NCBI GenBank assembly: GCA_944322175.1
Contig: CALUOB010000002.1
Coordinates: 29,078-93,077 of the forward strand
Source: an uncultured Coriobacteriaceae bacterium
GTDB taxonomy: Bacteria; Actinomycetota; Coriobacteriia; Coriobacteriales; Coriobacteriaceae
Reading direction: 5' to 3'
DNA: 64,000 nt
Part shown: positions 15,260 to 42,526 of the stretch, piece by piece
Numbering within the stretch: the first letter of the stretch is position 1
How the letters are laid out: each line of letters starts with the position of its first letter
Notes under the pieces: model-generated
What the model was told of the DNA's origin: nothing
What the model saw: the letters and a program-made list of their open reading frames with translations, nothing else
Databases searched by the model: none
Program-made: the position numbers and the translations under genes

Positions 15260-15310
15260 AAGGTCTTGGCAGGGTTCTTAGTGAAATCATCGAGAGTGAG
15301 AAGAGTGTCG

Positions 15311-21736: not shown

Positions 21737-21882
21737 ATTAAACGAACTCCTCTTGTCCATTTGTCGAACGTAGTTAAGGGTAGCAAATCGCAAGGGCGTC
21801 TTGGACCGGATGGGCAAACTGGTGCCGCCTGTTCCGCGAGGAAAGAGGGGCGACATCTGAGAAGAGAGCGATCGGCATCTTC

Positions 21883-24783: not shown

Positions 24784-25196
24784 GCGACCTCCGTCCACAA
24801 TAATAAATCCAGTTAGGTAGATAGTAATACGATGGAAGAGGTGCGGCGAAGTGGGTAATGTCGAAATGTAACAGTTGGATATGGCGCGTTCCGCAGCGCG
24901 CCTGCTGCTTGTGACGGTTTCCTGAGAGTGTTCGGGAACAGCTGGGCTAGACAGTCCATGCACGGCACGCACATGCCTTGAAGCGGCTCCAAGAGCATCT
25001 TTCGCTGAGGGCTCCATCGTTTGACGGGCGGCTTACGCACCGTACGAGTTTGATGGGGTTACGTCACCGTTGGGGAGTCTATTTTGCCCGTTTGCAAGTG
25101 ATCGTCATTGTAGCTTGGTTTCAGCTGCTATTCTAATTTCTTAAGTGTCGGTTATCTCGCCATATGACGTATGGCATAGGGACGGAGGGATTAGTC

Positions 25197-28100: not shown

Positions 28101-31100
28101 GATGCTGTCATTTACGTTTATGACAGCTCCGATGAGCCCGTTGAGGGCGCTGAGGTGAGAAAGAGCGGTTCTGATGATAGTCTCGGAACAACCGACTCTG
28201 AAGGCAAGCTCACCACGGACGCGCTGAGTGCTGAGGCGGGCAACACCAGCATATATGCAAGCAAGGGAGAGGAAATATCCTTTGCCTTTACGTTCTCAGT
28301 TTATTCGGCACAAGGGGATGAGTCTGGAGCTGCGGACGGGATTCGTTTCGGGGCAGTTGATGATATAGCAACCCAAAAGCAAATTGGATGGCTCAGCAGC
28401 CCTTTGAGTGGTAAACAACAGGTTCTAAATTACCGTGTTAAGGGAGTAAAAGAGTGGACCTCAGTCGATGCCGAATCCAAGATGCTCTTTTTTTCCAAGG
28501 GCGGTAACAAGACCGTGCAATCGAACGGCGTTGTTCTTACAGGGCTTGCACCAGCAACAACCTATGAGTTCGCTGTTGGTACTGAAGACCATATGAGCGC
28601 CGAGAGAGAATTCACTACAGGTAATGAAGGCGGGGCAGCTCACAATTTCTTTGTGATCGGCGATATTCAAGAACAGGACACCACGAACATAAAGGGGATT
28701 ATCGACAAGCTGTCGGGATCTTCTTGGGACTTTGGCGTGCAGACGGGAGACGCCATTGATGATCCGACACTGTACGAGGATTGGCCAACGCTCGGCAATA
28801 TATTCGGTAGCGAGAAGCTGCACGGAACAAGCCTGATCAACGTTATGGGAAACCATGAGTATAACGGAGACGCCAGCGGGTCAATCGCATCTGCGATTTA
28901 TGGCAACGATACGACAGAGCCGGGCAGCTGTTGGTCAAAAAAGTATGGCGACCTTTATGTTGCGGTGATGAATTACAGCACGAATGCTGCGCAGATGCGT
29001 GAAGCAGCCGAGTGGCTTAAGGAGGATGCGAATGCATCCCATGCAAAGTGGCGTATTCTGTTCACGCACCAGCCTCCTTACTTCACAAACGCTACGGGTG
29101 GTAACGACGTCGTTTACGAGATTCTGCCCGAAGCTATCGACGCCGCAGGAATCGATGCGGTGTTCTCTGGCCATGATCACAGCGCCGTTCGCACGAATCC
29201 CCTAAAAGGAGATGAAGCCGACGACGCCGGTACGGTTTATTACATCTGTGGCTCCACGGGAGGCAAAGAGTACTCGATCACTTCGCAGGGCAAGTTTGAT
29301 TTTGAAAAGGTCTTTGCTCTTGCAACGATCGACTACAGCGCGATTTATCTTACCGCCCATGTTGAGGACGACACCCTAACCGTTACCATCAACGATCTCG
29401 ATGCCGGTCCTATCGATACGTTCGAAATCAAATCCAAGTGCCACAACGTTCACTACGATTTTGAGAGCGGTGTGTTCTCTTGCGATCGCTGTGGCAAAAC
29501 CTTCGATGACTACACAGGTATGGTGGAGGACGACGAAGGCAACAACTATTACTTCCTGAACGGCAAAATGCAAACCGGATGGGTTCTTATCGGAGAGGAT
29601 TATCACTACTTTGATGAGAACGGAGTTGAAGAGAAGGTCACCGTTGAGGACGAGAAGGAAACTTCCTGCGTCATTCAGGGCCATAAGACCTACGTATCCG
29701 AGTCCGGCGAAGAAAAATACGTCAAGGGCGATATTCCTCCAGGACATGAGTATGTTGACCAGGATAACGGGGACCGAATTTGCTCTGTTTGCGGTTGGAA
29801 GTACGTCGAGCTCAAGGACTGCGACATTAAGCTGAGCATGACGGAGGCGAACTACACCGGTGTGCCTCGTAAACCAAAGGTTACTGTTACGACGCCCGAT
29901 GGAATCCTTCTCACTCAAAGCGGCGATGGTAAAGACTACCAGGTGTTTACGTACACGCAGGAGGAGTTTGCCAAGCAATCCACTAAGGATATGCTCACCA
30001 ATGTCGGCACCGCTTATCTTGAGCTGAGATCGTATCGACCCGGCAAAAACGTAAACCTGAATGAATATCGTGGTGATTGCGGCGGCAGGATCAAGGTTTC
30101 TTTCCGCATCGTGCCCCCTGCCCCCAGCGATGCGTCAATCGCTTACGCCTCCTCTCAGGCAAGCCTGCGCTGGACTAAGGTCATTGTTAACGGCGATGAG
30201 CCCGTGGACGAGTACGTCATCTATCGCTCGAAAGATGACGGAAAGACTTATTCAGCGATCGCAACCACCGATAGCACGTCGTATGTCGACAAGTCCTATA
30301 AATCTGGCTACAAGTACTGTGTAGGCAGCCGTTGCGTTATTGATGGCGAGCACTATGACTCAAAGACCCGTCGTATTCCGGGTACCTTCAGGCCTGTGGT
30401 CAAAGCCACCCAAAACGAGGATGGAAAACCGTCCTTGAGCTGGTCGAAGCGCGAAGGTGTTACCTACGAAATCTGGCGCGCGAGCCTAACTGGATCCTTT
30501 AAGAAGATCGGTTCAACGGAGAACGGTACGTATGTCGATACGAAGGCCGTTGCGGGCACTAAGTACCGCTACAAGGTCAAGGCCTTGGATGGCTCCTTGA
30601 GTGTCGAAAGTTCGGTATGCACCGTCGAGTGCCTCTGCGCCGCCCCTAAGCTGACCGTCTCCAACCGCGTTGACGGTAAGCCAGTGCTCAGCTGGAGTAA
30701 GGTTTCTGGAGCAGTTGAGTATGATGTGTTCGTTTCGACCTCTGGCAAGACGGGGTCGTTCAGGCGCACGTTTACTGGAAAGGGCAATTCTCTAGCGCAT
30801 ACGTCTGCAAAGACGGGGGTTACCTATTATTACGCAGTTCGCGGTGTTACCAAGAACGACGGCAACGGTTCGTTTAGCGAGCATGTTTCTGGGGAGTGCC
30901 GGACAGAGACCATCGAAGCAGTGTTCGAGAACCGCGCGAAGGATGGATATCCTTTGATTACCTGGAACAAGGTTCCTGGTGCAACGAAGTATGAGGTTTA
31001 TCGGGCTACGAGTAAAAACGGGACGTATACCAAGATTTACGCGGCAACCGGAACGACTCTTGCCAACATCTCGGTGGATGAGAACAAGGTCTACTACTAC

Positions 31101-31742
31101 AAGGTGCGACCGGTTTCTTCCACGGGAATCAAGGGAAGCTTCAGCAACGTTGTCTCCGGAAAGTTCATGGGCACACCCATTGAGCTGAGCGTATCCTACC
31201 GATCGAGTGACTCTTGTCCGGTGATTGAGTGGAACAAGGTGCCCGGTGCGGCAAAGTACAAATTCTACCGTTCAACAACTGGGAAGGTTGGTAGTTTTGT
31301 GCCGGTTGCAACGGTAACGAGCTGCAAGGTCACTCATACAAGTGCACTGCCAGGCCGTACGTATTACTACAAGGTGCGAGCTATGTCCAAGAGCGGCACT
31401 CTCGGTGATCCAAGCGAGGCAGCGACTGGTGTGCGCGATGCCAGCTCGGTCATTCCCGAACTGAAAGTTGAGTACCGCGCAACCGACGGTAAGCCCAAGC
31501 TTACGTGGAATGCTATTGGAGGGGCCAAGGGGTACGAGGTGTATCTGTCTACTACCGGTGAGAGCGGCGACTTCGAGCTGATCTATACCGCAAAGGGCAC
31601 CTCCCTGTCCCACACTTCTGCTGCGGAAGGCATGGTGTACACGTACAAGATCAGGGCACTGTTTGAAGACGGTGGGACAAGTTCGTTTAGTGATCCCGTG
31701 CAAGCAGAGCTCTATGGTGCCGAGGCGCCTGAGGCAGCATAA
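25197..31742 (+). CDS. Giant secreted multidomain protein: phosphodiester glycosidase (NAGPA/DUF2233-like) + Ig-like domains + calcineurin-like metallophosphoesterase + one wall-binding repeat + about 6 FN3 repeats
   Basis: The GTG at 25197 is preceded by ggaggg and yields a signal peptide (VATSVRLRRVFAGALCFAFAALASFGLHSAFA). N-terminal AAVNADFFNMATGEPMGALVMEG...NYARCAIGIKSDG...LELDAGGSATF fits phosphodiester glycosidase. FFVIGDIQ, GDAIDD, MGNHEY, FTHQPP and GHDHSAVR (about 28640-29400) form a metallophosphoesterase signature. NYYFLNGKMQTGW is a CW-binding repeat. The C-terminal 30110-31720 holds repeated units of the type GKPxLxWxKVxGAxxYxVYR. No LPXTG motif or C-terminal TM segment. Confidence 0.8.
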   Translation: MATSVRLRRVFAGALCFAFAALASFGLHSAFAASSSWEGVADNDILVSDTVTHLANGVIQHEVISNNSSGTDQNIEYFADIDLSSADVQLVAGYGKNNADSWSLTRTTDQAKAYEKDNPGKTVVAAVNADFFNMATGEPMGALVMEGEVKHQANGRWYFGVTKDGKAVIRNTNDLSDLQMAVGGNSLTAQNGKVLDLPDNGFNEINYARCAIGIKSDGSVLTVTTHGNFAPTSCGRSNTEIAQILVNAGCETVLELDAGGSATFASRAEGEDELAVKNTPRDGAERQVSSSLLIVSTSKPTGVFDHASILPNNEVYTPGSKVQFTAKGIDNAGAAMDLPEGIQFRVASDSKDLGSIDAETGLFVAGDTEGTVTIEAVLNDKTVGSTTIDIAKPDEIYFASEDVNLGFGETSDLGVVVRSKKREINYKDGDLVWSISDPALGTFEGNLFIASDGSDLHGVATATSKWDESVKGEVEVNVGVLPTQVWDFEDKVVEDADEDGDGEGSGEVIPAEEYYIGTEDKPGILTHSNYGRGGKESIEIVSIDDDEPVWRGENSLKLNYDFTECGEVTEGACIGTTEQFEIPGTPTGIGVWVYAPDGVGIEYEGDGSQAGFWLRGYVQDGAGNNQPYDFTLEPKNADVVSGEEQPGIYWKGWKYLEADLTHLSAPYSIQPGMTFRLMYVAGTKMGTKSANAIYFDNLQFVYGTNVDDVDAPVVDSILLNDEELENGATIGNGTVNVTATFHDVDNKYTTGIDPTTVRLQIDGVNVLDNEDYESAYMEADNRVYLYNCQLNDGVHSVTVSMKDGFGNDVNETRFFTIDTGNSDAQSTVSVTPTSQSAVIGKSVTLEVRYQGDSVTDATVSVMLGNRFPDYTVDFSSDYEGSSSWSNLNRTVTLEATRKDNASFSDNLIATIKVAIPVNLKDGDMFNYAIKRGSYTTDDGSYNTFSEPEQELPIVAPLHIEAEPIVENQDAVIYVYDSSDEPVEGAEVRKSGSDDSLGTTDSEGKLTTDALSAEAGNTSIYASKGEEISFAFTFSVYSAQGDESGAADGIRFGAVDDIATQKQIGWLSSPLSGKQQVLNYRVKGVKEWTSVDAESKMLFFSKGGNKTVQSNGVVLTGLAPATTYEFAVGTEDHMSAEREFTTGNEGGAAHNFFVIGDIQEQDTTNIKGIIDKLSGSSWDFGVQTGDAIDDPTLYEDWPTLGNIFGSEKLHGTSLINVMGNHEYNGDASGSIASAIYGNDTTEPGSCWSKKYGDLYVAVMNYSTNAAQMREAAEWLKEDANASHAKWRILFTHQPPYFTNATGGNDVVYEILPEAIDAAGIDAVFSGHDHSAVRTNPLKGDEADDAGTVYYICGSTGGKEYSITSQGKFDFEKVFALATIDYSAIYLTAHVEDDTLTVTINDLDAGPIDTFEIKSKCHNVHYDFESGVFSCDRCGKTFDDYTGMVEDDEGNNYYFLNGKMQTGWVLIGEDYHYFDENGVEEKVTVEDEKETSCVIQGHKTYVSESGEEKYVKGDIPPGHEYVDQDNGDRICSVCGWKYVELKDCDIKLSMTEANYTGVPRKPKVTVTTPDGILLTQSGDGKDYQVFTYTQEEFAKQSTKDMLTNVGTAYLELRSYRPGKNVNLNEYRGDCGGRIKVSFRIVPPAPSDASIAYASSQASLRWTKVIVNGDEPVDEYVIYRSKDDGKTYSAIATTDSTSYVDKSYKSGYKYCVGSRCVIDGEHYDSKTRRIPGTFRPVVKATQNEDGKPSLSWSKREGVTYEIWRASLTGSFKKIGSTENGTYVDTKAVAGTKYRYKVKALDGSLSVESSVCTVECLCAAPKLTVSNRVDGKPVLSWSKVSGAVEYDVFVSTSGKTGSFRRTFTGKGNSLAHTSAKTGVTYYYAVRGVTKNDGNGSFSEHVSGECRTETIEAVFENRAKDGYPLITWNKVPGATKYEVYRATSKNGTYTKIYAATGTTLANISVDENKVYYYKVRPVSSTGIKGSFSNVVSGKFMGTPIELSVSYRSSDSCPVIEWNKVPGAAKYKFYRSTTGKVGSFVPVATVTSCKVTHTSALPGRTYYYKVRAMSKSGTLGDPSEAATGVRDASSVIPELKVEYRATDGKPKLTWNAIGGAKGYEVYLSTTGESGDFELIYTAKGTSLSHTSAAEGMVYTYKIRALFEDGGTSSFSDPVQAELYGAEAPEAA

Positions 31743-31796
31743 CGTGTAACGGATGCCGTGTCGTGCTGTGATTTGCACAGCAATAGCTCTTCTAGG

Positions 31797-31831
31797 GAGG
31801 GGCGCGCCGAAACGGAGGCGCCCCTCTTTTT
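31797..31831 (+). terminator. Rho-independent terminator after the giant exoprotein gene
   Basis: gaggggcgc (31797-31805) pairs perfectly with gcgcccctc (31818-31826), with a 12-nt loop, followed by ttttt (31827-31831). Confidence 0.85.
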
Positions 31832-31850
31832 CATATCCGACAAGCCGTAT

Positions 31851-34550
31851 ATGAAGCCCGTGGAATTGGGCAATCCCTCATCATCTGAGTTAAAATTTCA
31901 ACAGTATGTCAGTACGGAGGCTGAGCTCGAACTGCCGGGGCTCGGCCTGAGTGTATCGGGATGGTTGCTCATGCGGACCGAAGACGACAATGTATTAACT
32001 GACGAGGCGATGCGTGACGACGCTGTGCGCGATGAAGCCGCTCTAGTCGACTCCGAAAATGAGGGGCCGGGTGCTTCGGAAGATGCAGAAAAGCGAGCGC
32101 GGAGCAAGCGCAAGCATACGCCTCGTCGTTTCATGCTTCGGCAGGCGGCTCGTGCTCGTAAACTCGTCATGTGCGGGCAGGGATATTCCTTGCGCGGCGC
32201 TCGCTCGTGGATTCGCCGCACACGTATCGACTGGCGCGTGCGCAACTACAGCGCTCATGAGATTCGTTGGGCTCACAAGCATGGTTTTTCTGCCTATCAG
32301 GTCGCGCGCTACGGCATTACTCCTCAAAACGTGGGGGATTTCATTTCCGAGAAGGATTATGACCTCCTCTTTCCCTTCAATGGAAAATACGATAAGTGGC
32401 TAAATGACCGTATCACTACGCTTATAGTCGCCGGTCCTTTTGCATCTCGATTTGAGCCCGTTCACTTCAATATCATCTCGCGGAACGGAGAGCTCCTTTT
32501 CATTCCAGTATCTGAGGAGGCTCGCGCTGTTGCTCAGGAGAAAAAGGATGCCCTCGCCGCTTTCTTGACGTTCCTTGGTCGGTATCGCAAGACGAAGGAG
32601 CTTTGCCTCAACGGTTCCGCTTGGTCCAACAGGCTGTATCGCTCTCTTCAGGCTCTGCCTAGGCCCAAGGATGGCAATCGCTCCTATCTGTTGGGTAACA
32701 ACGTTGTTGGCCGAGACGAGCTTGTCGATTTCTTGCAGCGCATGGCCGACAAGCGTTCTCTCGTACTTTACGAGCCGGCGCCGGCAGACGCGGGCCTTGA
32801 TGCGCTTGGGCTCGACGTATACGGCAACGCACGTATCGTTCTGTTCAATCCGACGGGCAACGATCCGCAAATCGGCGATGCATACATGCGCATTCTTGAC
32901 GATACGCGCAGTGATGGGCTCGATCAAGAGCAGGATGCCGAGGGCGCAACAGCCGAAGCCGTAGAGCACGACTATGACGACGATGACGACCGTGCTGCAG
33001 ATGAGGAGAAGGAGAGCGCTCCGCGCCTCCGCTTCTACGCCGCTCCGATCGATCTTGCGACGGGTGCTTTTGATGGCGCCCGCGCTCTTTACACCCGCGG
33101 TAAGTACATCGACACGCCGACTCATGTTGAGAAGGGTCTTCCTCTCAAGGGGCGGGTGCTCCATTGGGATGAGATCAAGCGCGATCTCATCGCTCTGTGC
33201 AAGCGCCTCCCTCAGATCGAGTTTATGGAAGTTGCCGTTCGCTCCACTAAGGACGGCTACCGAATCGTGCGGGTAGATCCGTCGCCGGCGTATAGCCGCG
33301 CGCTGCCCTTCTCGCCTTCCGTTCAGCAATTCCTTAAGAGTAAGCTTGCAGATAAGCAGCAAAGTACCGACAAGGGCTTTGGCCGTGCCCGCCACGCGGC
33401 CTTCCTGCGTACGCGTCGCGCATTTACTAAGACATTTTATCCTGCAGGAATGGTGTATTACCAAGGGCTTCGATACCCGCACGACGTAATTGAAGATCTG
33501 TTCTCGCGCAACGGCATTGGTCTGGGGCGCAAGCTTTGGGCGTACCGTCATGGCTTCCTTTCGTATCGTCTCGACTTGTATCCCGAGCTTTGTGAGGACA
33601 ACTGGCAGAACTACGTTACCGACCTCGAGTACCGCTGGCTGCGTCATATCAATCCCAAGTACCGCACATGGATGGAAGACAAGATTACCTACAAGTACCT
33701 GTTTTCCGAGTATCCGGAATGCTTGCCGCAGTATTACTACTTTACGAGTTGCCGTGCGGGGGAGAATCGTATCGTTCCGATGATGGATTGCCCTGAGGGC
33801 TATGATGCAACGGTTGAGTCTATTTTGCGGCTTGTGCGCGAGATTGGCGTCGTTGCTCTTAAGCCCGATGAGGGCTCGCATGGCGAGGGATTCTATAAGC
33901 TTTCCTATGAAGACGGGGTGTATGCCCTAAACGGGGAGCCTACGACGGCAGAGCACGTAGAGTCGATCTTGCGTGATCCCGCGAATCAGTACCTCGTATC
34001 CGAATACATTGACATGCATCCTGACCTCAAACGCATTTATCCCGGTGCGGTAAATACGGTTCGCGTTACGGTATTTAAACGTGATGGCGTAAATCCCCAG
34101 ATCGGCAATGCATATTTCCGTATCGGTTCTTCGCGTACGGGCGCGGTGGACAATGTTGTTGCCGGCGGCTTGGTGGCAGAGGTTGACGTGACTACGGGCC
34201 GTTACGGCAACGCACGTACGCTCGTCGACAATCGCATTGTCTTTGAGCGGGAGCATCCCGATACGGGTGTTGTCATTGAGGGCGAGTTGCCTCATTGGGA
34301 CGATATCCGTCGTAAGATTCTGGCTATTGCGCGTTCGGTGCCTCAGCTCGAGTACCTCGGTTTTGACGTTGCCATAACTACCGACGGTTTCCGCTTACTC
34401 GAGGTCAACCGGTACCCCGATTACCCGCGAATTTCCCGTCTTACGCCCGAGACCATCTCGTATCTTCTGATGAAGATCGAGGACAAGAAGCGCTTCCGCA
34501 AGGTTGACGAGAATCCGAGTTTCTTCAAGCTGCCGCGGAGAGACGCATGA
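31851..34550 (+). CDS. Protein with two tandem sugar-transfer-associated ATP-grasp (ATPgrasp_ST) modules; the first looks divergent
   Basis: The second module is clear: VVALKPDEGSHGEGFYK, NTVRVTVFKRDGVNPQIGNAYFRIGSSRTGAVDNVVAGGLVAEVD, EHPDTG, LGFDVAITTDGFRLLEVNRYPDYP. The first module shares the layout (HKHGFSAYQVARYG..., NARIVLFNPTGNDPQIGDAYMRIL, THVEKGLPLKG, MEVAVRSTKDGYRIVRVDPSP) but carries an acidic insert (DYDDDDDRAADEEKE). Start placed at the ATG at 31851, after the terminator; track ORF 31758 would run through the terminator. Confidence 0.65.
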   Translation: MKPVELGNPSSSELKFQQYVSTEAELELPGLGLSVSGWLLMRTEDDNVLTDEAMRDDAVRDEAALVDSENEGPGASEDAEKRARSKRKHTPRRFMLRQAARARKLVMCGQGYSLRGARSWIRRTRIDWRVRNYSAHEIRWAHKHGFSAYQVARYGITPQNVGDFISEKDYDLLFPFNGKYDKWLNDRITTLIVAGPFASRFEPVHFNIISRNGELLFIPVSEEARAVAQEKKDALAAFLTFLGRYRKTKELCLNGSAWSNRLYRSLQALPRPKDGNRSYLLGNNVVGRDELVDFLQRMADKRSLVLYEPAPADAGLDALGLDVYGNARIVLFNPTGNDPQIGDAYMRILDDTRSDGLDQEQDAEGATAEAVEHDYDDDDDRAADEEKESAPRLRFYAAPIDLATGAFDGARALYTRGKYIDTPTHVEKGLPLKGRVLHWDEIKRDLIALCKRLPQIEFMEVAVRSTKDGYRIVRVDPSPAYSRALPFSPSVQQFLKSKLADKQQSTDKGFGRARHAAFLRTRRAFTKTFYPAGMVYYQGLRYPHDVIEDLFSRNGIGLGRKLWAYRHGFLSYRLDLYPELCEDNWQNYVTDLEYRWLRHINPKYRTWMEDKITYKYLFSEYPECLPQYYYFTSCRAGENRIVPMMDCPEGYDATVESILRLVREIGVVALKPDEGSHGEGFYKLSYEDGVYALNGEPTTAEHVESILRDPANQYLVSEYIDMHPDLKRIYPGAVNTVRVTVFKRDGVNPQIGNAYFRIGSSRTGAVDNVVAGGLVAEVDVTTGRYGNARTLVDNRIVFEREHPDTGVVIEGELPHWDDIRRKILAIARSVPQLEYLGFDVAITTDGFRLLEVNRYPDYPRISRLTPETISYLLMKIEDKKRFRKVDENPSFFKLPRRDA

Positions 34551-35668
34551 GGCTTTTGGTCGAGACGGCAAAGTGCGTGTTGCGGGCGCTCTATGCGCTC
34601 ATAAAGGCGGTGTGCCCGCAACAGCCTAATCGTGTGGTCTTCCTGAGCCGTCAAAGCAACGAACCCCAGCTCGATTTTCTCATGCTTATTGAGCGGCTCG
34701 AACGGGAGTGTTCCGGGGTTCGTTGCACGTGTATCTGCTGCCGTTCAGACAGAGATCTTCGCTCCCGGGTGCGTTATCTGGGGGCGTTTCTCTACAGTAT
34801 GGTGTGCCTTGCTCGTTCGCGGGTGTGCGTGCTCAATAGTTATTGGCCTGCCGTGTCGATCCTTAATCATCGTGGGAGCCTTAAGGTAATTCAGATCTGG
34901 CATGCCCTGGGAAAGATTAAGCAGTCGGGGTATCAGACGCTTGATCGGGACATGGGTCACTCGAGTGCTATGGCGCAGGAACTAGCAATGCACAAGGGCT
35001 ATGATATTGTTATTGCCGGCGCCAAGGCATGGAATCCCATGTACTGTGCGTCGTTTGGAATCAAAAACGATGTCATTCGCAACGTAGGTCTTCCGCGCCT
35101 TGACTTTCTTCAGACCCAGGGTGATGCGGTCCGCAAGCGCTTTTTTGAGAAGTACCCTGATCTGAAGGGCAGGCGAATCGTACTGTACGCTCCTACGTTT
35201 CGACCGGGTGTAAAGCGTGGTGCCGCGCGCCTGTTTGAGGAGCTTACGAAGGCTGGCTCGGTAGTCCTGTTCAAGCATCATCCCAACCAGCCGATGAAAA
35301 TCGATGATCCAGCGGTTCTTTCTGCTCCCGACTTTACGTCGCTCGAGCTGCTTCTCGTCTGTGATTATCTCGTGACCGATTATTCTGCCATCGCCATCGA
35401 AGCTGCATCGGTGCATGTCAAAACGTATTATTACTGCTTTGACATTGAAGCGTATCGCGAAAAGAACGGCCTCAACATAGACCTGGAGCAGTTGCTGCCC
35501 CATTGCGTTTATAGGGATGCAGGCGAAATTGCTCGCGCAATGGAGGGCCCGTATCCAATAGACGAATTTGAGGCATATCGTGCTCGCTACGTCTTACCGG
35601 ATAAAGACCTCGGCAAGTCGACCGAGCGAATCGTAGATATGATTAGGGAAGGGCTTGATCCATGCTAA
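34547..35668 (+). CDS. CDP-glycerol/CDP-ribitol poly(alditol-phosphate) transferase, TagF/TagB (Glyphos_transf) family
   Basis: QIWHALGKIKQSGY (catalytic His region), RIVLYAPTFR and LVTDYSAIAIEA match the TagF-family motifs (WHG.G.K, ILYAPT[WF]R, itDYSS..fd). The ATGA start overlaps the upstream stop. Confidence 0.8.
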   Translation: MRLLVETAKCVLRALYALIKAVCPQQPNRVVFLSRQSNEPQLDFLMLIERLERECSGVRCTCICCRSDRDLRSRVRYLGAFLYSMVCLARSRVCVLNSYWPAVSILNHRGSLKVIQIWHALGKIKQSGYQTLDRDMGHSSAMAQELAMHKGYDIVIAGAKAWNPMYCASFGIKNDVIRNVGLPRLDFLQTQGDAVRKRFFEKYPDLKGRRIVLYAPTFRPGVKRGAARLFEELTKAGSVVLFKHHPNQPMKIDDPAVLSAPDFTSLELLLVCDYLVTDYSAIAIEAASVHVKTYYYCFDIEAYREKNGLNIDLEQLLPHCVYRDAGEIARAMEGPYPIDEFEAYRARYVLPDKDLGKSTERIVDMIREGLDPC

Positions 35669-36714
35669 GAAGCGCGTACCGATGGGTTACTGATCGCCTT
35701 AAGTTCGCGTATCTGTGGGTGTTTCGTATCCTGTTTGCTCCGAACCACTTTGGCGTGAGTCTGTTTAAGCGCATCAAGTGGGCAGTTTGCGGCGGATATA
35801 TGTGCGATCAGGTTGCTCTATATCATCTTGATCGCGAGACGCGCAAAGATTACCTTTCGGAGTTTGACTGGTATCGATCCCGCGTGATTAATCATCCGTA
35901 TGAGACGATGCTCAACAACAAGGTGCTCTGCGCGCAAATGCTCACTCCTTATGCTTCGGTGCCCGAGGTCCTCTTTTTCATGGAAAAGGGCAAGATTGTT
36001 TGCCCCCAGCGAGCGGATAGGTGGGCGACGCAGGACGAGGTTCTCGCGACGATCCGAGAGCAGGGCAAGGTCTTTATCAAGCCTGTTTCTTCGGGTAAGG
36101 GTAAGGGAGTTCATCTTTTAGGGTATGAGAACGGTTCGTACCACATTGACCTCGAACCTGTGGCAGAGAGCGCTATTCGTGCGCAGATCTCCGAAAAAGA
36201 TTGGCACATCGTTGAATGTGCCTCGCAAAGCGCCTTCTTGAACGGAATATTCCCGCATGCGAGCAACACGATTCGAGCCATTACGCTGCGTGATCCTGAG
36301 ACGGGCAGCTACCGTATGTTCTTTGCTGTGCTTCGAATCGGAACCGATTCGACCATACCGGTAGACAACGGCAGCAAGGGTGGCCTCGTTGCAAAGATTG
36401 ATCTCGAAACGGGCGAGCTCTCGGAGGCTCGAAGCATTCAAGCTGACGTGCATATGAGCCTGCATCCTGATACCGGAGCCCAGATTGAGGGTGCTCGCAT
36501 TCCTAACTGGCATCAGGTTCGTCAGCAAGTCGTTGCTTTGGCCGAACATCTGCCGTTTATGGAATTCATTGCTTGGGATATTCTGCTTACCGACGATGGC
36601 TTCACGGTGATTGAGGCGAATGCTTCGTCTGGTGTTAACATCATCCAGATTTGGGGCGGACAGCGTCATGGGGAGCTGGGCGCATTTTACCGTGCGCACA
36701 AGATCATAAGGTAG
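35662..36714 (+). CDS. Sugar-transfer-associated ATP-grasp (ATPgrasp_ST) ligase
   Basis: VFIKPVSSGKGKGVHLL, NTIRAITLRDPETGSYRMFFAVLRIGTDSTIPVDNGSKGGLVAKID, LHPDTG, IAWDILLTDDGFTVIEANASSG. Same layout as the C-terminal domains of 18491-21736 and 31851-34550. Confidence 0.7.
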   Translation: MLRSAYRWVTDRLKFAYLWVFRILFAPNHFGVSLFKRIKWAVCGGYMCDQVALYHLDRETRKDYLSEFDWYRSRVINHPYETMLNNKVLCAQMLTPYASVPEVLFFMEKGKIVCPQRADRWATQDEVLATIREQGKVFIKPVSSGKGKGVHLLGYENGSYHIDLEPVAESAIRAQISEKDWHIVECASQSAFLNGIFPHASNTIRAITLRDPETGSYRMFFAVLRIGTDSTIPVDNGSKGGLVAKIDLETGELSEARSIQADVHMSLHPDTGAQIEGARIPNWHQVRQQVVALAEHLPFMEFIAWDILLTDDGFTVIEANASSGVNIIQIWGGQRHGELGAFYRAHKIIR

Positions 36715-36719
36715 GGTTG

Positions 36720-37316
36720 ATGAGATACATCATCATGGCTAACGGCGCTGCAACGCGCTGGGGGAACTACCTTGGTGTGCCCAAGCATCTCGCTCGTGTG
36801 GGGGAAGAGACGCTCTTGGAGCGCACGGTGCGCTTGGTTGGGGCTGCTTCTCCTGATGCTGAAGTCGTTATCAGCGCGCATGATGAGCGCTACCGAGTTA
36901 AAGGCGCGCGCTTCTATACCCCTCTTCGAAACGACTACGAGATCGATCGGTTTGTCTTGGAGCTTCTTGACGAGCCTTGTTGCTTTTTGTATGGCGATGC
37001 ATGTTATACACCCGAAGCGATCGACACCATTTGTGCTGCGGGTGGGAGCAGCGACTTGCTCTTTTTTGGGAGTTCGAGTCGAATCTTTGCCGTCAAGGTG
37101 TTTGCCCCCGAGGTTGCTGCTAGCCTGTTGCGAGACCTGCGCGCAGAGATCGAAGAGGGCTCTATTCCCGACTGTAAAGGATGGCAGCTCTATCATCGCT
37201 ATCTCGGTATGCCCCTAGAGGGCAAGGCGATTGGCGACGATTACGTGCTGATCGAAGACGGAACGACGGATTTTAACACGCCGAGTGAATACGAGGCGTA
37301 TTTGGGGAATCGGTAG
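36720..37316 (+). CDS. Nucleotidyltransferase (NTP_transferase / IspD-TarI-LicC-like), probable activator of a polyol- or sugar-phosphate
   Basis: Start at the ATG at 36720 (track ORF begins earlier in frame). N-terminal IIMANGAATRWGNYLGVPKHL matches the G-x-G-x-R...PK-x-L signature of nucleotidylyltransferases. Located between the ATP-grasp gene and tagG. Confidence 0.55.
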   Translation: MRYIIMANGAATRWGNYLGVPKHLARVGEETLLERTVRLVGAASPDAEVVISAHDERYRVKGARFYTPLRNDYEIDRFVLELLDEPCCFLYGDACYTPEAIDTICAAGGSSDLLFFGSSSRIFAVKVFAPEVAASLLRDLRAEIEEGSIPDCKGWQLYHRYLGMPLEGKAIGDDYVLIEDGTTDFNTPSEYEAYLGNR

Positions 37317-37324
37317 GTGATCGC

Positions 37325-38131
37325 ATGTTGAGCACGCTTCGGCAGATCATCCAGGAGAATTGGGAGATGCGCAGCCAGATCTGGCATCTTGCCATAACCG
37401 ACCTGGTTAAGACGTATCGTGGTGCGGCGCTGGGGTGGTTCTGGCTGTTCGCACGCCCCGCAATGTATATCTTCGTTTTCTGGTTCACGCTTTCGCTCGG
37501 TCTGCGCAGCGGCAAGCCTGTTGAGGGCGCCCCTTATATTCTTTGGCTTGCTGCAGGAAGCATGCCTTGGTTCATGATGCAGAGCATGATCGTTACTGGT
37601 GGCAATATCTATCATCGCTTTGGCTACCTGGTGAATCGCATCAAATTCCCCCTCTCGGTCATATCGACTTTCTATGTTGTGTCCCTCATGATTGTGCTTC
37701 TTGCCGAGCTTGCCATCATTGTTGCCCTGTGCCTTGTGTTCGGAGTCCATATATCTCGCTATATCCTTCAGCTTCCGCTCATCCTGGTTGTCATGTTCGT
37801 CTATTGGGTGGCGTTCTCCGTGATGATGTCGCCGCTTACGGCTCTCTCTAAAGATCTGGCGCAGCTTCTCCGCACACTTTCGACGCCGCTTTTCTGGCTT
37901 TCTGGCATTATTTTCCATTTGGACCGTTTGCCCGAGGTTGCTCAGATGGTCATGTGGTTCAACCCGGTCTCGTGGTTCGTTCAGTCGGTTCGCGACTGCT
38001 TCGTGTTCCATACCTGGATTTGGGAGCGACCTGGACAGCTGGGCGCGTTCGTCGCTGTCTTTTTGCTTACAGTGCTCCTTGCGGTACGCAATTACGATCG
38101 CCTGAGCAAGGAGGTCCCCGATGTCATCTAA
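37325..38131 (+). CDS. tagG: Teichoic-acid/glycopolymer ABC exporter permease (ABC-2 type), TagG/TarG
   Basis: 268 aa with 6 TM segments. N-terminal LAITDLVKTYRGAALGWFWLFARP is the typical TagG/ABC-2 start. It overlaps tagH. Confidence 0.85.
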   Translation: MLSTLRQIIQENWEMRSQIWHLAITDLVKTYRGAALGWFWLFARPAMYIFVFWFTLSLGLRSGKPVEGAPYILWLAAGSMPWFMMQSMIVTGGNIYHRFGYLVNRIKFPLSVISTFYVVSLMIVLLAELAIIVALCLVFGVHISRYILQLPLILVVMFVYWVAFSVMMSPLTALSKDLAQLLRTLSTPLFWLSGIIFHLDRLPEVAQMVMWFNPVSWFVQSVRDCFVFHTWIWERPGQLGAFVAVFLLTVLLAVRNYDRLSKEVPDVI

Positions 38132-39014
38132 GAAGCGGGATGTTCCCGAGGCTGAGATCATCCGTGACAATGACAACACTACACCGATTGCAGTGCGGTT
38201 TGAGCATGTTACGAAGACATACAAGCTTTACAAAAGCGATCGCCATCGCCTGTTGAGCGCCCTGACCTCGCGTGTTAAGTGCGACGAGGTTAACGCGAGC
38301 AACGACCTTTCTTTCGTTGTGCATCGTGGCGAGTCGATTGCGCTCTTGGGCGACAATGGCGCTGGCAAGTCCACAGCGCTTAAGATGATCACGGGCGTGT
38401 GCTTCCCCACGACAGGAAAGATCGAGGTCCATGGTCGCGTGTCTGCGCTGCTTGAGCTGGGCGCCGGTTTTGACATGCGTCTGACGGGGCGAGAGAACGT
38501 GCGTCTCCGTGGTCAGATTCTTGGCCTTACGTCGGAGGAGATCGACGAGCTCGAGCCCAAGGTCATTGCGTTCTCCGAGCTTGGCAAGTACATCGATCAG
38601 CCGATGCGCACGTATTCGAGTGGCATGCGAGCACGTCTCGGATTCGCTGTGGCGTCATCGATTAAGCCCGATATTCTTGTTGTAGATGAGGCACTTGCGG
38701 TCGGCGACCGTCGCTTCTCTCTCAAGTGCCGCAGGCGCGTGCGCACCATCATGAAAGACGACAATGTCACCGTGCTGTTTGTGACTCATTCCACTAGGCT
38801 TGCTCGATCGTTCTGCCAGACGGGCGTTGTTCTGGAGCACGGCCACGCCGTGTATGAGGGCGCCATTGACGATGCGGTCAAGTTTTACGAGCACGAGGAT
38901 GATGAACGTCCTCAGAAGCGTCCTCCCAAGAAGCGTGTCTACGAGAAGCGCGATCCTAAGGTTTGTCCCAAGTGGCGCAAGCGGCCGAGGACAAAACGGT
39001 ATCAGGCTTGGTAG
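38121..39014 (+). CDS. tagH: Teichoic-acid/glycopolymer ABC exporter ATP-binding protein, TagH/TarH
   Basis: GDNGAGKST (Walker A), YSSGMRARLGF (the TagH-type signature), ILVVDEAL (Walker B), and a basic C-terminal tail. Confidence 0.85.
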   Translation: MSSKKRDVPEAEIIRDNDNTTPIAVRFEHVTKTYKLYKSDRHRLLSALTSRVKCDEVNASNDLSFVVHRGESIALLGDNGAGKSTALKMITGVCFPTTGKIEVHGRVSALLELGAGFDMRLTGRENVRLRGQILGLTSEEIDELEPKVIAFSELGKYIDQPMRTYSSGMRARLGFAVASSIKPDILVVDEALAVGDRRFSLKCRRRVRTIMKDDNVTVLFVTHSTRLARSFCQTGVVLEHGHAVYEGAIDDAVKFYEHEDDERPQKRPPKKRVYEKRDPKVCPKWRKRPRTKRYQAW

Positions 39015-39273
39015 TTTGGTAAGAGTTACGGGCCATTTGTGGTCTTTTTGATCTTCTGCGTTTCGCTTCTGTTGCTCTTTTGAATAGAAAAACGCAGGCG
39101 CACAGTAGGGGAGTAGTATGGCCTTATCCGATGCGTCGACGGGGGCGGAAGATGCTGTTTTGGTTTGAAGCGGCTGCCCTACTGCTGCAGCGTTTTGCCT
39201 GTGCTGCGGTAACGTGCCACATTCCTTAGATTAAGGGTTTGAGGTACCAAGACTGACGAGAAAGGACTGGCTT

Positions 39274-40005: not shown

Positions 40006-40095
40006 CGTTTAGGTTGCGCCGCGCCATACCGCGCCGCGCTGGCAGTCCTTCTCTCCGTAGACGGACGATCGATACCGCATGAAAGGGGTATTGCC

Positions 40096-40947: not shown

Positions 40948-41060
40948 ACGAGTTCTGCTGACGGGGCGCCGCGCTGCGGTGTACCCGTTGGTACCGCCGC
41001 CCGGGCGCATGGCCGCCCGGGCGGCTTGCGAATACTTGCACAAGGAAGGAGAGGAGGGCC

Positions 41061-41807: not shown

Positions 41808-41811
41808 GGCA

Positions 41812-42459: not shown

Positions 42460-42526
42460 CGATCGGCAGGTTGTCCCGCGGGTCGGGGCAGCCGGACCCG
42501 CGCCAAAGACGGCGCGGTGAGGAGGA

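Follow-up and report, generated by a model that had tools for sequence, protein, structure and literature searches.

A Coriobacteriaceae operon pairing a TagF-family phosphotransferase with ATP-grasp ligases, read as one copy of a widespread wall-polymer cassette

The six genes at positions 31851-39014 (+ strand) of the analysed stretch (64,000 nucleotides of an uncultured, Collinsella-like Coriobacteriaceae gut bacterium, here called the window) are best read as a representative of a wall-polymer cassette that is widespread, depends on an ABC transporter and is uncharacterised; its product is probably an amino-acid-bearing cell-wall polymer so far undescribed. The reading that we favour, at slightly less than an even chance, is that cytoplasmic ATP-grasp ligases load a teichoic-type lipid-linked phosphodiester chain with amino acids or short peptides, after which the chain is exported and attached to peptidoglycan. 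It is supported by the families to which the genes belong, by their catalytic motifs and folds, and by their cytoplasmic location, conservation and gene partners. The genes (g1 to g6) and their boundaries are:

31796..31835, + strand: terminator-like GC-rich hairpin with T-run between the gene of a 2192-aa protein and g1, read from the sequence
31851..34550, + strand: g1, tandem ATP-grasp protein of 899 aa, degenerate N module and active-type C module
32268..33362, + strand: N-terminal pseudo-ATP-grasp module of g1, about aa 140-504 (BLASTP to the C half; HMM/motif alignment)
33636..34424, + strand: C-terminal active-type ATPgrasp_ST module of g1 (PF14397, 8.9e-33)
34547..35668, + strand: g2, TagF/TagB-family CDP-alcohol phosphotransferase, 373 aa, catalytic core only (PF04464)
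35662..36714, + strand: g3, cassette-defining, tightly conserved ATPgrasp_ST ligase, 350 aa (PF14397, 1e-36)
36720..37316, + strand: g4, divergent nucleotidyltransferase of MobA/LicC/IspD-like fold, 198 aa (NTP_transf_3)
37325..38131, + strand: g5, TagG/Wzm-like ABC-2 permease with hydrophobic segments (PF01061, ABC2_membrane, 4e-16)
38121..39014, + strand: g6, TagH/Wzt-like ABC ATPase (PF00005, ABC_tran, 3e-19)
39030..39055, + strand: terminator-like hairpin with T-run 3' of g6 (hairpin scan)

The stop of g1 and the start of g2 are joined in an ATGA overlap, g2 and g3 overlap by 7 nt, the g4 ATG lies 5 nt past the g3 stop, and g5 and g6 share 11 nt, AAGGAGG lying upstream. A terminator-like hairpin stands at each end, the first with its stem at 31804-31821 and the tail CCCTCTTTTT in the scan. 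This tight translational coupling, together with the terminators, indicates a single transcription unit. The six coupled genes described in the initial annotation were thereby confirmed, and independent gene calls on the public contig matching the window yield the same six; a Pfam search of g1-g6 also agrees with the gene families named there, the ATP-grasp reading frames matching ATPgrasp_ST. Neither a transmembrane (TM) segment nor a signal peptide is predicted in g1-g4, consistent with the earlier proposal that the ligases act in the cytoplasm before export; ligation would precede export because it is ATP-dependent.

Pfam matches g1 to ATPgrasp_ST (PF14397) in a single stretch (8.9e-33), and the N half aligns with the C half (BLASTP 2e-26, 23% identity), which points to a true internal duplication. 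The N module has no Pfam match, lacks the Lys/Gly-rich LKPxxGSxGxG loop and the VDN..GG motif, and carries EVAV...RVD in place of GFDV...EVN at the Mg-ligand positions, so that the D...E-x-N ligands are missing. In the motif alignment the C module keeps LKPDEGSHGEGF, NTVR, VDNVVAGG, FDVA and LLEVN, and its median identity over the related loci is 53%. A dead module is likewise joined to a live one in g1 homologues from Lachnospiraceae, where the protein has 820 aa, and from Leucobacter, where it has 708 aa. Of the three ATP-grasp modules counted earlier, the duplication stands, but ATP- and Mg-binding residues are retained in g3 and the g1 C module and absent from the N module, so that two live ligases in the operon are plausible, not three. 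The g1 start codon is uncertain, since its opening 80-100 aa, acidic in composition, are unconserved; alignment with orthologues begins only at about aa 77-107.

The AF2 model of g3 (pLDDT 91) has an ATP-grasp fold, with all catalytic motifs invariant among 27 homologues and 46-55% identity across two phyla. A sequence search of the PDB gave no match to g3; the nearest solved structures are PsnB, Ddl/VanA, LysX and RimK, with which g3 shares fold and catalytic motifs, but at 11-16% identity and TMq <=0.44, and g3 has in the model an extra helical N-terminal region of roughly 100 aa that is characteristic of ATPgrasp_ST. A conserved, strongly basic N-terminal helix in the homologues weakly suggests membrane association rather than an enzyme of soluble metabolites. 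There is a weak match of both g3 and the g1 C module to TIGR02291, a model for alpha-L-glutamate ligases related to RimK. Typical ATP-grasp ligases join a carboxylate to an amine, and a plain polyol phosphate has neither group, which counts against the favoured reading. Acylation of a polyol hydroxyl has a chemical precedent in the ester-forming enzymes PsnB, MdnC and VanA, which belong to the structures nearest to g3.

Catalytic motifs are intact in g2 (Glyphos_transf, PF04464, 7e-42; closest PDB entry TarL 8va1, 2.5e-21), and its histidine motifs IWHALG and FKHHP and the motif TDYSAI line up with TagF/TarL. Its best NCBIfam model is TarB (7.7e-27), followed by TarL (1.1e-23), both far under their cut-offs. 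Because it is of TagB/TarF size and TarB, a primase, is the top model, g2 may be a primase instead of a polymerase; a long poly(alditol-phosphate) chain is thus not assured, and the earlier statement that a TagB-type primase is lacking becomes moot.

The g4 start is most likely the ATG at 36720, the mechanical reading frame being longer (from TTG 36651). The NTP_transf_3 match of g4 is barely over threshold (4e-7); the model is found in 34/34 members of its family (3e-7) and IspD in 28/34; the PDB profile match is confined to the N-terminal GxGxR region. The AF2 model (pLDDT 94) has a confident nucleotidyltransferase fold, for which Foldseek places PntC (TMq 0.70), MurU (0.62) and LicC (0.61) foremost, with small margins over IspD, MobA and RmlA. 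Invariant residues unique to it (W14, Y91-G92-D93, G154-W155) set g4 apart as a small family of its own. Identification as TagD was rejected, g4 not being CTP_transf_like, and TarI/IspD was not upheld, the matches staying under thresholds. The nucleotidyltransferase assignment of the initial annotation holds, whereas its "poly(alditol-phosphate)" was an assumption; amino-alkyl phosph(on)ates are what the nearest folds, PntC and LicC, activate, so that something other than an alditol may form the backbone unit. In NCBIfam g6 scores best with TagH models (3.3e-66 and 6.9e-61), under the equivalog cut-offs.

The comparison covered 80 related loci, taken from 232 or more species in Actinomycetota and Bacillota; about 70 of the loci have the triad of TagF-like, ATP-grasp and nucleotidyltransferase genes, and g2-g3-g4 are strictly contiguous in at least 55. 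Cassette-bearing isolates include Collinsella tanakaei, Eggerthella sinensis DSM 16107, Leucobacter tenebrionis and Glutamicibacter uratoxydans NBRC 15515. The cassette arrangement is far beyond chance. A TagF-like gene is present in 75/80 loci, a nucleotidyltransferase in 72, a further ATPgrasp_ST gene in 57, an ABC ATPase in 51 and LCP in 26 + 5. The triad is typically accompanied by a large tandem ATP-grasp protein, an LCP wall ligase and the ABC exporter, the most frequent layout being g2-g3-g4-large ATP-grasp-g5-g6-LCP, and four minimal cassettes (L047, L053, L074, L032) hold only g2-g3-g4-g5-g6-LCP. Racemases, Ddl-type ligases, CapB-like Mur ligases and initiators of TagO-like or Bac_transf type are present only now and then. 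Eggerthella sinensis (L015) has an uninterrupted TagO-like - LCP - g5 - g6 - g2 - g3 - g4 series, and Bac_transf adjoins the cassette in Leucobacter, Lachnospiraceae and Anaerostipes. Genes for amino-acid supply and ligation are embedded downstream of g4 or next to the exporter: Alr in 4 loci, an Asp/Glu racemase with Ddl in L019, Ddl in L023, an AlaDh-like gene in 2 loci, an amino-acid permease in 3 loci, and fusions of CapB-like Mur ligase and PGA_cap in 13/80. TupA-type ATP-grasps occur in 7. The partner initiators, LCP and D-amino-acid genes (Alr, Asp/Glu racemase, Ddl) fit a peptidoglycan-attached amino-acid or peptide polymer made by an ABC-transporter route. In L063 and L068, g3-g4 and the exporter occur with no TagF-like gene within 10 kb, a hint that g3 and g4 are bound more tightly to each other than either is to g2. 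Bulk Pfam analysis of 126 accessory operon genes revealed no recurrent GT-A/GT-B family, and the absence of glycosyltransferases is essentially a family-wide trait of the cassette. The racemase and Ddl neighbours could also be peptidoglycan housekeeping genes present by synteny. No characterised member, solved structure or paper on the cassette was found. We know of no chemistry for any cassette-bearing organism, which counts against the favoured reading.

The operon is part of a larger low-GC island, not seen in the initial annotation, with these further genes:

14141-15259, + strand: YheC/D-type ATP-grasp protein without signal peptide or TM segment, coupled to the following gene
15266-17233, + strand: PGA_cap+LRR_5 protein without signal peptide or TM segment
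17292..18464, - strand: membrane Acyl_transf_3 O-acyltransferase, homologues adjacent in L006, L020 and L038
18491..21856, - strand: cytoplasmic PGA_cap + LRR_5 + ATPgrasp_ST fusion of 1121 aa with active-type motifs
21883..25017, - strand: anchored protein with Amidase_3, choline-binding-type wall repeats and YkuD L,D-transpeptidase
25164..31742, + strand: anchored 2192-aa surface protein with NAGPA phosphodiester glycosidase

Beyond the operon the island thus contributes two more ATP-grasp proteins and two PGA_cap proteins, the latter without membrane anchor and predicted to be cytoplasmic, giving five ATP-grasp and two PGA_cap modules in all; these indicate peptide or polyamide chemistry beyond single aminoacyl decorations. 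Homologues of the genes at 14141..17233 adjoin the cassette in L006 and L017, and PGA_cap, as in homologues of the fusion, is carried in 32/80 loci. The 2192-aa protein also has purple-acid-phosphatase/metallophosphatase, fn3, Big_2 and wall-binding repeat domains, and NAGPA-type proteins stand beside the cassette in L009, L005, L042 and L061. Window reading frames of at least 180 aa contain no GT, TagO/TagA, Bac_transf, LCP or Dlt domain, and six-frame tblastn of the window gave no match for genes of TagO-like, Bac_transf, LCP, racemase or Ddl type; both agree with the earlier remark that glycosyltransferase, TagO/TagA and dlt are absent. The lack of an initiator and of LCP in the window counts against the favoured reading.

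Under that reading, an initiating transferase encoded elsewhere in the genome, with the cassette-adjacent TagO-like Glycos_transf_4 or Bac_transf of relatives as its counterpart, would prime undecaprenyl phosphate. A nucleotide-activated (probably CDP-) alcohol phosphate, with CDP-glycerol as the simplest candidate, would be made by g4, and g2 would place the phospho-unit on the lipid-linked acceptor as primer and/or repeating chain. With ATP, g3 would add the first amino acid to the phospho-unit and the live C module of g1 a further residue, the dead N module serving as scaffold or substrate-binding pseudo-subunit. The finished lipid-linked polymer would be flipped or exported by g5/g6 and joined to peptidoglycan by an LCP enzyme, encoded elsewhere in the genome here and adjacent in many relatives. 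The YheCD ATP-grasp, PGA_cap fusions and O-acyltransferase probably lengthen or diversify the peptide part, and on the outside of the cell the polymer is probably bound or remodelled by the anchored amidase and the giant protein of phosphodiesterase type. We infer the step order, the CDP-alcohol, the choice between ester and amide bond and the product chemistry; D-Ala and/or Glu as the amino acid is a guess from the partner genes.

Among the closest known systems is the wall teichoic acid (WTA) pathway of Bacillus subtilis and Staphylococcus aureus (TagO-TagA-TagB-TagD-TagF / TarIJL, TagGH, LCP). The cassette has in common with it a nucleotidyltransferase of its own, a TagG/TagH-like ABC-2 exporter, a TagF-family phosphotransferase in which the catalytic histidines are conserved and, within the operon of relatives, a TagO-like initiator and LCP ligase. 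In contrast to WTA, TagA and a decorating glycosyltransferase are absent from the operon, its nucleotidyltransferase is neither TagD (CTP_transf_like) nor above TarI/IspD thresholds, the TagF-like enzyme is only a 373-aa catalytic core, and at least two ATP-grasp ligases belong to it as integral and conserved parts of the cassette. The cassette would, like DltABCD, place amino acids on a teichoic-type polymer, and Alr/Ddl-type genes in some cassettes likewise hint at D-Ala. Dlt forms a thioester on a carrier protein and relies on MBOAT for transfer on the membrane exterior, whereas the cassette, in a window without DltA/B/C/D domains, would use a cytoplasmic ATP-grasp acyl-phosphate before export, which may be an alternative to Dlt-type D-alanylation. 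In Gram-negative pathogens, TagF-like capsule polymerases (e.g. Cps3D, PDB 8qoy) also place a TagF domain outside classical WTA with ABC-transporter export, but are large, multidomain and often carry GT domains; we know of none paired with ATP-grasp ligases. Lysine on Streptomyces ribitol-phosphate WTA is an actinomycete precedent for amino-acid substitution (bioRxiv 10.1101/2025.04.24.650519). In the HS:2 capsule of Campylobacter jejuni, the cytoplasmic ATP-grasp Cj1438C, of a TupA-like sister family devoted to surface polysaccharides, amidates the growing chain of an ABC-exported polymer as an obligatory assembly step, activating the glucuronate carboxylate in fusion with a GT2 (PMC11800379); the present operon has no uronic acid pathway or GT, its partner is a TagF-family phosphotransferase, and its ligases match ATPgrasp_ST (PF14397), not ATPgrasp_TupA. 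PGA_cap in the island, and CapB-like fusions and TupA ATP-grasps beside cassettes of relatives, recall CapBCA/PgsBCA and the TupA teichuronopeptide, but the window has no CapB Mur ligase and no CapC, its PGA_cap proteins are unanchored and predicted to be cytoplasmic, and uronic-acid genes are absent.

These capsule-like traits bear on an unlikely alternative, in which g2 supplies a teichoic-type linkage or primer of a single phospho-unit or a few and the ATP-grasps build a polyamide on it, such as poly-Glu or a D-amino-acid peptide made in RimK-like processive fashion, helped in other genomes by CapB-like Mur ligases; the resulting wall polymer, lipid-linked and resembling teichuronopeptide or PGA, would then be ABC-exported and LCP-attached. 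The primase or oligomerase size of g2 with TarB as top model, the TIGR02291 matches and RimK and LysX neighbours, the PGA_cap, Mur-ligase-fusion and TupA-type counts among the 80 loci and the five ATP-grasp and two PGA_cap modules of the island all suit it, but size by itself cannot tell TagF-family primases from polymerases, g2 and g4 are conserved as much as the ligases, and g3 would have to build the entire chain alone in minimal cassettes. A nucleotidyltransferase for a lone primer unit also seems extravagant, though TagD/TagB is a precedent. We consider it about as improbable that g3 and g4 act on a soluble building block, g4 activating a phospho-compound with an amine or a carboxylate (e.g. 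phosphoethanolamine, serinol phosphate, phosphoserine or phosphoglycerate), g3 ligating an amino acid before or after activation, and g2 polymerising the amide-containing phospho-unit, so that the backbone would mix phosphodiester and peptide and would not be poly(glycerol/ribitol phosphate). Analogous logic operates in F420 tail assembly (CofC/CofD/CofE/CofF). Such monomers would provide for the carboxylate and the amine that canonical ATP-grasp chemistry requires, PntC (2-aminoethylphosphonate) and LicC (phosphocholine) are top folds of g4, which has its own invariant residues and no above-threshold TarI/IspD assignment, the g3-g4 pair occurs apart from TagF-like genes in L063 and L068, and choline-binding-type wall repeats are found in adjacent hydrolases; against this, the Foldseek margins are small, the basic helix of g3 weakly suggests membrane association, and no recurrent aminotransferase, decarboxylase or kinase in the cassettes would supply an unusual phosphate. 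The amino-alcohol phosphates serinol-P or ethanolamine-P, as nucleophiles of Cj1438C, offer a precedent of similar logic (PMC11800379).

It is highly improbable that the ligases act on peptidoglycan precursors or another substrate and are merely co-regulated with an ordinary teichoic primase and exporter. Side-chain or cross-bridge ligation of this kind has a model in the D-Asp ligase Aslfm, and Alr, Ddl, S11 carboxypeptidase, amidases and YkuD are near some cassettes. The minimal cassettes, however, hold no other genes that would explain an export-worthy polymer, the ligases co-vary with exporter and LCP and not with mur genes, and g3 lies between g2 and g4, with start and stop codons that overlap or abut, in 55 or more of the 80 loci, across two phyla with differing peptidoglycan types.

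The six genes at 31851-39014 on the + strand lie at the right-hand end of a low-GC island, with stops and starts that overlap or almost abut.

Junctions and flanking hairpins of the operon:
Between the upstream 2192-aa gene and ATG 31851: GC-rich hairpin with T-run
34547-34550, +: g1 (tandem ATP-grasp)/g2 (TagF-like) junction, ATGA overlap
35662-35668, +: g2/g3 (ATPgrasp_ST) junction, 7-nt overlap
36714 to 36720, +: g3 stop and most plausible start (ATG) of g4 (nucleotidyltransferase)
37316 to 37325, +: g4 stop and start of g5 (permease)
38121-38131, +: g5/g6 (ABC ATPase) junction, 11-nt overlap with AAGGAGG upstream
39030-39055: GC-rich hairpin with T-run, after g6

The six genes called on an identical scaffold from a public metagenome (ENA ERZ28614160) likewise encode proteins of 899, 373, 350, 198, 268 and 297 aa, and these independent calls together with the junctions confirm the operon coordinates of the initial annotation. 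The exact start of g1 is uncertain because its first 80-100 residues or so (window 31851-32150) are acidic, of low complexity and unconserved among orthologues. The sole promoter-like match, at 31867-31896, falls within this stretch, and the two observations together suggest that the true start may be an internal ATG. A sigma-70 scan scored no better than shuffles, so the operon promoter could not be placed, and an Rfam scan of the window returned no riboswitch or leader. None of the g1, g2, g3 and g4 proteins has a transmembrane segment or signal peptide.

The g3 protein matches ATPgrasp_ST (PF14397) at 1e-36 (126.9 bits vs. a gathering cut-off of 31.4), and g1 contains a single such stretch (8.9e-33), its C-terminal module scoring 114.1 bits against the same cut-off of 31.4. 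The N-terminal module of g1 was undetected in the Pfam search, and the N half of the protein aligns to the C half at 2e-26, indicating a genuine duplication. The description of g1 as a double ATPgrasp_ST protein therefore holds for the duplication, but the N module is degenerate: it lacks the LKPxxGSxGxG loop and the VDN..GG motif and reads EVAV...RVD at the Mg-ligand positions instead of GFDV...EVN. A motif check found the ATP-binding Lys/Gly-rich loop and the Mg-binding D...E-x-N in g3, in the g1 C module and at the C terminus of a 1121-aa fusion protein elsewhere in the window, and found them missing from the g1 N module. Agreement with the family model and retention of the ATP- and Mg-binding residues, a check proposed with the initial annotation, thus extend to g3 and the g1 C module and not to the g1 N module. 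Because of this motif loss the operon has two plausible catalysts rather than the three ligase modules counted initially. The same dead-plus-live tandem occurs in homologues of 820 aa from Lachnospiraceae and 708 aa from Leucobacter.

The AF2 model of g3 (pLDDT 91) has an ATP-grasp fold and gave 325 PDB matches at E <=1e-3; almost every one of the 50 best listed is an ATP-grasp enzyme. The nearest solved structures are PsnB, Ddl/VanA, LysX, RimK and MdnC, at TMq <=0.44 and 11-16% identity, and a PDB sequence search with g3 returned no match even at an E of 1. In an amphipathic-helix test g2 and g3 showed hydrophobic moments of 0.45-0.62, within the top 14-36% of background, which is weakly suggestive of membrane association.

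The TagF-like protein g2 matches Glyphos_transf (PF04464) at 7e-42 (144 bits vs. a cut-off of 22.1; covering 5-365 of 367). Its IWHALG, FKHHP and TDYSAI motifs align with QTWHG, RMHYL and TDYSS of TagF and with TarL, and we take the catalytic-His and TDYS donor-binding roles to be those of the TagF structure. The nearest NCBIfam models are TarB and TarL, and g2 falls below every equivalog cut-off (TarB 94.5 bits vs. 500, TarL 83.7 vs. 1000, TarF 37.6 vs. 550). Its 373 aa correspond to the size of TagB/TarF-type enzymes, and by size and best model we would call it primase-like. The exporter genes g5 (ABC2_membrane) and g6 (ABC_tran in Pfam) can likewise be assigned to TagG/TagH exporters at the family level only, the best NCBIfam models for g6 being TagH at 224 and 206 bits, under equivalog cut-offs of 538 and 320.

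The nucleotidyltransferase g4 matches NTP_transf_3 at 4e-7 in Pfam, and its AF2 model, built with 16 database homologues (pLDDT 94), shows a small nucleotidyltransferase fold. PntC, MurU and LicC came marginally ahead of RmlA, KdsB, IspD, MobA and CobY in the fold search, which confirms the enzyme class and does not discriminate the substrate. The family profile matches only the N-terminal nucleotide-binding 50-80 residues (GxGxR region) of GlmU, CobY, IPCT and LicC, the ispD/TarI-type model scores 16 bits vs. a cut-off of 181, and no TarJ-like reductase is present. Judged from the models, g4 appears to be neither TagD nor TarI, its nearest folds being, by a small margin, enzymes that activate amino-alkyl phosph(on)ates.

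A TagO-type initiating GlcNAc-1-P transferase is absent from the 64-kb window, and domain scans of the window found no TagA ManNAc transferase or other glycosyltransferase, as the initial annotation had it, and no Bac_transf or LCP domain. A six-frame search of the window with the partner proteins of relatives found no initiator, LCP, racemase, Ddl or CapB-type Mur ligase. The reported lack of a dlt system was also upheld, since no domain of DltA (AMP-binding), DltB (MBOAT), DltC (carrier protein) or DltD occurs among the window ORFs scanned, with small ORFs (dltC, dltX) scanned non-exhaustively.

Homologues of g3 number in the hundreds, the top 120 all being about 350 aa and 47-99% identical. 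An exhaustive search placed 8,063 clusters (50% identity) in the wider family at E <=1e-3 and 551 at <=1e-30, and when one genome per species was scanned, relatives turned up in at least 232 species. The nearest, at 75-76% identity, belong to Collinsella (C. tanakaei, Coriobacteriaceae), which makes the source of the window a Collinsella-like organism. Other Actinomycetota with relatives include Eggerthella sinensis, Slackia, Ancrocorticia, Actinomyces, Leucobacter, Microbacterium, Glutamicibacter and Aeromicrobium, and the many Bacillota include Anaerovoracaceae, Emergencia, Ihubacter, Senimuribacter, Lachnospiraceae, Anaerostipes, Oscillospiraceae, Eubacterium, Anaerofustis and Bacilli MAGs. 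A locus on a contig labelled Bacteroides stercoris has the Clostridia-type layout g2-g3-g4-grasp-g5-g6-LCP-ThrRS and most likely reflects mis-binning or contamination, not an occurrence in Bacteroidota.

Gene types were counted over the best 80 loci. A TagF-like gene is present in 75 of them, which bears out the co-occurrence of TagF and ATPgrasp_ST that the initial annotation proposed to survey, and a g4-type nucleotidyltransferase in 72; g2-g3-g4 are strictly contiguous in at least 55 of the 80. Less frequent companions are a further ATPgrasp_ST protein (57/80), a TagH-like ATPase (51/80), a permease (41/80), PGA_cap (32/80), LCP (26/80, or at least 31/80 adjacent once extra LCPs are counted), a CapB-like Mur ligase/PGA_cap fusion (13/80) and a TupA-type ATP-grasp (7/80). 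Among complete layouts g2-g3-g4-large tandem grasp-g5-g6-LCP is the commonest, and minimal versions lack the large grasp. Median identity of the window proteins to distant loci is 49% for g3, 53% for the g1 C module, 44% for g2, 45.5% for g4, 53% for g6 and 40% for g5, and only 27% for the g1 N module.

When 126 operon members of relatives that had no other explanation were classified in bulk with Pfam, no GT-A/GT-B family recurred among them; they include extra LCPs, ABC-2 permeases, transglutaminase-like proteins, Alr (4), amino-acid permeases (3), Ddl (2), AlaDh-like (2) and Glycos_transf_4 (2). In Eggerthella sinensis (locus L015) the order is TagO-like - LCP - g5 - g6 - g2 - g3 - g4 - AlaDh-like - grasp - grasp - PGA_cap/Mur ligase, and an in-operon TagO-type gene is found also in L010. 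The AlaDh/PNT-family dehydrogenase of Eggerthella sinensis (L015:11790-12797) lies between g4 and the large ATP-grasps; because opine- and saccharopine-type enzymes also belong to this family, the building block may be an unusual amino acid. An Oscillospiraceae MAG carries Alr - g5 - g6 - g2 - g3 - g4 - Asp/Glu racemase - Ddl - two PGA_cap/Mur ligases, Rubneribacter carries g4 - TupA - PGA_cap - TupA - Ddl - an unassigned gene - LCP as the downstream part of its locus, and in Ancrocorticia g4 is followed by an amino-acid permease and a PGA_cap/Mur ligase. Bac_transf adjoins g2 or sits shortly upstream in the same operon in Leucobacter, Lachnospiraceae and Anaerostipes. Two Clostridia MAG loci (L063, L068) combine g3-g4 with Alr, an ABC exporter and further ATP-grasps and have no TagF-like gene within 10 kb, which suggests that g3 and g4 are functionally tighter together than with g2, or that another transferase substitutes. 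The ThrRS, SpoVAD, Maf, S2 and EF-Ts neighbours in Clostridia were rejected as functional partners and attributed to housekeeping synteny.

The cassette, i.e. g2-g3-g4 with its large tandem grasp, exporter and LCP, shares the lipid-linked, ABC-exported, LCP-attached logic of the wall teichoic acid (Tag/Tar) pathway. It is nevertheless not a canonical member, because TagA and other glycosyltransferases are absent, the nucleotidyltransferase belongs to a different family and g2 lies below every equivalog cut-off; nor is it Dlt, CapBCA or a TupA/uronic-acid pathway. From CapBCA/PgsBCA the window has only the PGA_cap (CapA-like) domain, in two proteins without transmembrane segments, and the Mur-ligase part of a PGA_cap fusion from a relative (L006) found no match in the window. 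For the ligases of the window the family matches are to PF14397 and PF14398 rather than to TupA (PF14305); tblastn showed only weak similarity between the window and a TupA-type protein, and no uronic-acid genes were seen in the window. The TupA-like ATP-grasp domain of C. jejuni Cj1438 is the nearest biochemically characterised analogue of the putative ligase step; in the elongating capsule chain it joins serinol-P or ethanolamine-P to glucuronate by an amide bond, a step that has to precede the action of the next transferase (PMC11800379). Teichoic acids with amino-acid substituents are already known from actinomycetes: the wall teichoic acid of Streptomyces carries lysine and phosphoethanolamine (bioRxiv 10.1101/2025.04.24.650519), an analogy at the polymer level.

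An identical pathway already characterised, a possibility raised with the initial annotation, did not come to light: literature and PDB searches found no characterised member or structure for ATPgrasp_ST (PF14397), and full-text searches found no paper on a TagF-linked ATP-grasp cassette. Promising matches (spore-coat SpsB/YheCD, CA_C2195, Streptomyces CRISPRi, the Lipocone paper) proved unrelated to the cassette, and a literature search on Glutamicibacter teichoic-acid chemistry gave nothing useful. Iyer et al. reportedly defined ATPgrasp_ST in 2009 and predicted that it modifies surface polysaccharides, so the idea of such a role is not categorically new.

Taken together, the partners (polyprenyl-phosphate initiator, TagF-family transferase, dedicated nucleotidyltransferase, TagGH-like exporter and LCP) define a predicted pathway for a teichoic-type, ABC-dependent, undecaprenyl-linked, peptidoglycan-attached polymer. 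The invariable position of g3 between g2 and g4, with a second conserved ligase in the g1 C module, suggests that amino acids are joined covalently to the product while it is still in the cytoplasm. The same is indicated by the additional, variable amide ligases (ATPgrasp_ST, YheCD, TupA, Ddl-type, CapB-type) and by racemases, permeases and alanine-metabolism genes, and some lineages probably use D-amino acids. An amino-acid-bearing polymer made before export had been a guess in the initial annotation, which the comparative data raise to a well-supported prediction.

As to what the ligases act on, we tentatively favour decoration of a polyol-phosphate chain through ester bonds, a reading that may well be right while falling short of probable; it is made plausible by the ester-forming ATP-grasps PsnB, MdnC and VanA among the folds nearest the g3 model. 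It is unlikely that the ligases build the main chain itself, as a polyamide on a teichoic-type primer, and no likelier that their substrate, in every repeat, is a monomer with an amine or carboxylate group. Action on peptidoglycan precursors instead seems very improbable. Beyond the ester-decorated chain, a broader and doubtful proposal is that the cassette makes an undescribed class of Gram-positive wall polymer, a phosphodiester-peptide hybrid. The unit moved by the TagF-like enzyme would be a g4-activated phospho-alcohol or phospho-acid with an amine or carboxylate rather than plain glycerol or ribitol phosphate, and ATP-grasp ligation (by g3, then by g1-type and accessory ligases, with D-amino acids in some lineages) would be obligatory in each polymerisation cycle and not an optional decoration.

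Teichoic acids, together with the amino acids that decorate them, govern surface charge and cation homeostasis, the targeting of autolysins, the receptors for phages and toxins, and resistance to cationic peptides; Dlt is, to our knowledge, the only well-understood route of teichoic-acid aminoacylation. The hosts of the cassette include common human and animal gut Coriobacteriia (Collinsella, Eggerthella, Slackia) and Clostridia (Anaerovoracaceae, Lachnospiraceae, Oscillospiraceae, Anaerostipes) as well as soil and skin Actinomycetes (Leucobacter, Microbacterium, Glutamicibacter, Actinomyces), and as far as we know the envelope chemistry of most of these groups is largely uncharted. If correct, the model would describe a cytoplasmic, ATP-grasp-based route adding amino acids or peptides to a phosphodiester wall polymer, give a first function to the Pfam family ATPgrasp_ST (about 8,000 clusters of public sequences at 50% identity) and supply candidate enzymes for the amino-acid substituents reported on actinomycete teichoic acids; the hybrid polymer, if real, would also give a first function to the cytoplasmic PGA_cap fusions. 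A cell-envelope specialist would not be astonished, but so wide a conservation in important Gram-positives of gut and soil makes this a good lead. Cultured strains exist and the enzyme set, with four members, is compact, which makes the model directly testable; the missing glycosyltransferases, the orphan nucleotidyltransferase and the tandem ligase with its conserved dead-plus-live layout add to its appeal.

The low-GC island (about 51-57% GC in surroundings of about 66%) occupies roughly 10-40 kb of the window, a pattern typical of horizontally exchanged surface-polymer loci. It contains the whole surface-polymer locus (10000-40000), and its left end also carries an amidohydrolase and an MFS transporter.

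Other genes of the locus and its downstream flank:
14141-17233, +: YheC/D-type ATP-grasp coupled to a PGA_cap+LRR_5 protein (15266-17233)
17292-18464, -: Acyl_transf_3 membrane protein
18491-21856, -: PGA_cap+LRR_5+ATPgrasp_ST fusion, 1121 aa, with active-looking ATPgrasp_ST
21883-25017, -: anchored Amidase_3 protein with at least 4 choline-binding-type repeats and YkuD, 1044 aa
25164-31742, +: anchored surface protein, 2192 aa, with NAGPA phosphodiester glycosidase, purple-acid-phosphatase, metallophosphatase, fn3, Big_2, GH85_C-like and wall-binding repeat
39274-43201, +: polar-amino-acid ABC importer (ATPase, TAT-signal SBP_bac_3 with weak glutamate-binding-site similarity, two permeases) and cytidylate-kinase-like gene

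The two proteins that join PGA_cap (CapA-like, metallophosphatase-fold) to BspA-type LRRs (15266-17233 and 18491-21856) have no signal peptide and no transmembrane segment. Classical CapA is membrane-anchored and extracytoplasmic, in contrast to this cytoplasmic PGA_cap-LRR-ligase arrangement, and relatives fuse PGA_cap to CapB-like Mur ligases. A phosphodiester wall polymer may be what the 2192-aa protein remodels or cleaves; NAGPA-type proteins adjoin the cassette also in four related loci (L005, L009, L042, L061). The 1044-aa protein pairs a hydrolase, N-acetylmuramoyl-L-alanine amidase, with a cross-linker, the YkuD L,D-transpeptidase, and its choline-binding-type repeats may bind the polymer of the operon. 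The importer and cytidylate-kinase-like gene lie directly downstream of the operon and could supply an amino acid or CTP; they were rejected as members of the system, being at the GC boundary and not following the exporter in the Collinsella relatives.

The remainder of the window encodes transporters, a methyltransferase, and Fic, helicase, LytTR, BrxC/D-like and TerB proteins, with a defence- or mobile-looking cluster at 50203-63571:
50203-51399: Fic/DOC protein
51462-53594, -: large ORF without Pfam match
53788-56415, +: large ORF without Pfam match
56491-58935, -: DEAD/Helicase_C protein
58932-60110, -: LytTR protein
60120-61496, -: BrxC/BrxD-family ATPase (6e-169)
61493-63571, -: TerB-N/TerB-C protein
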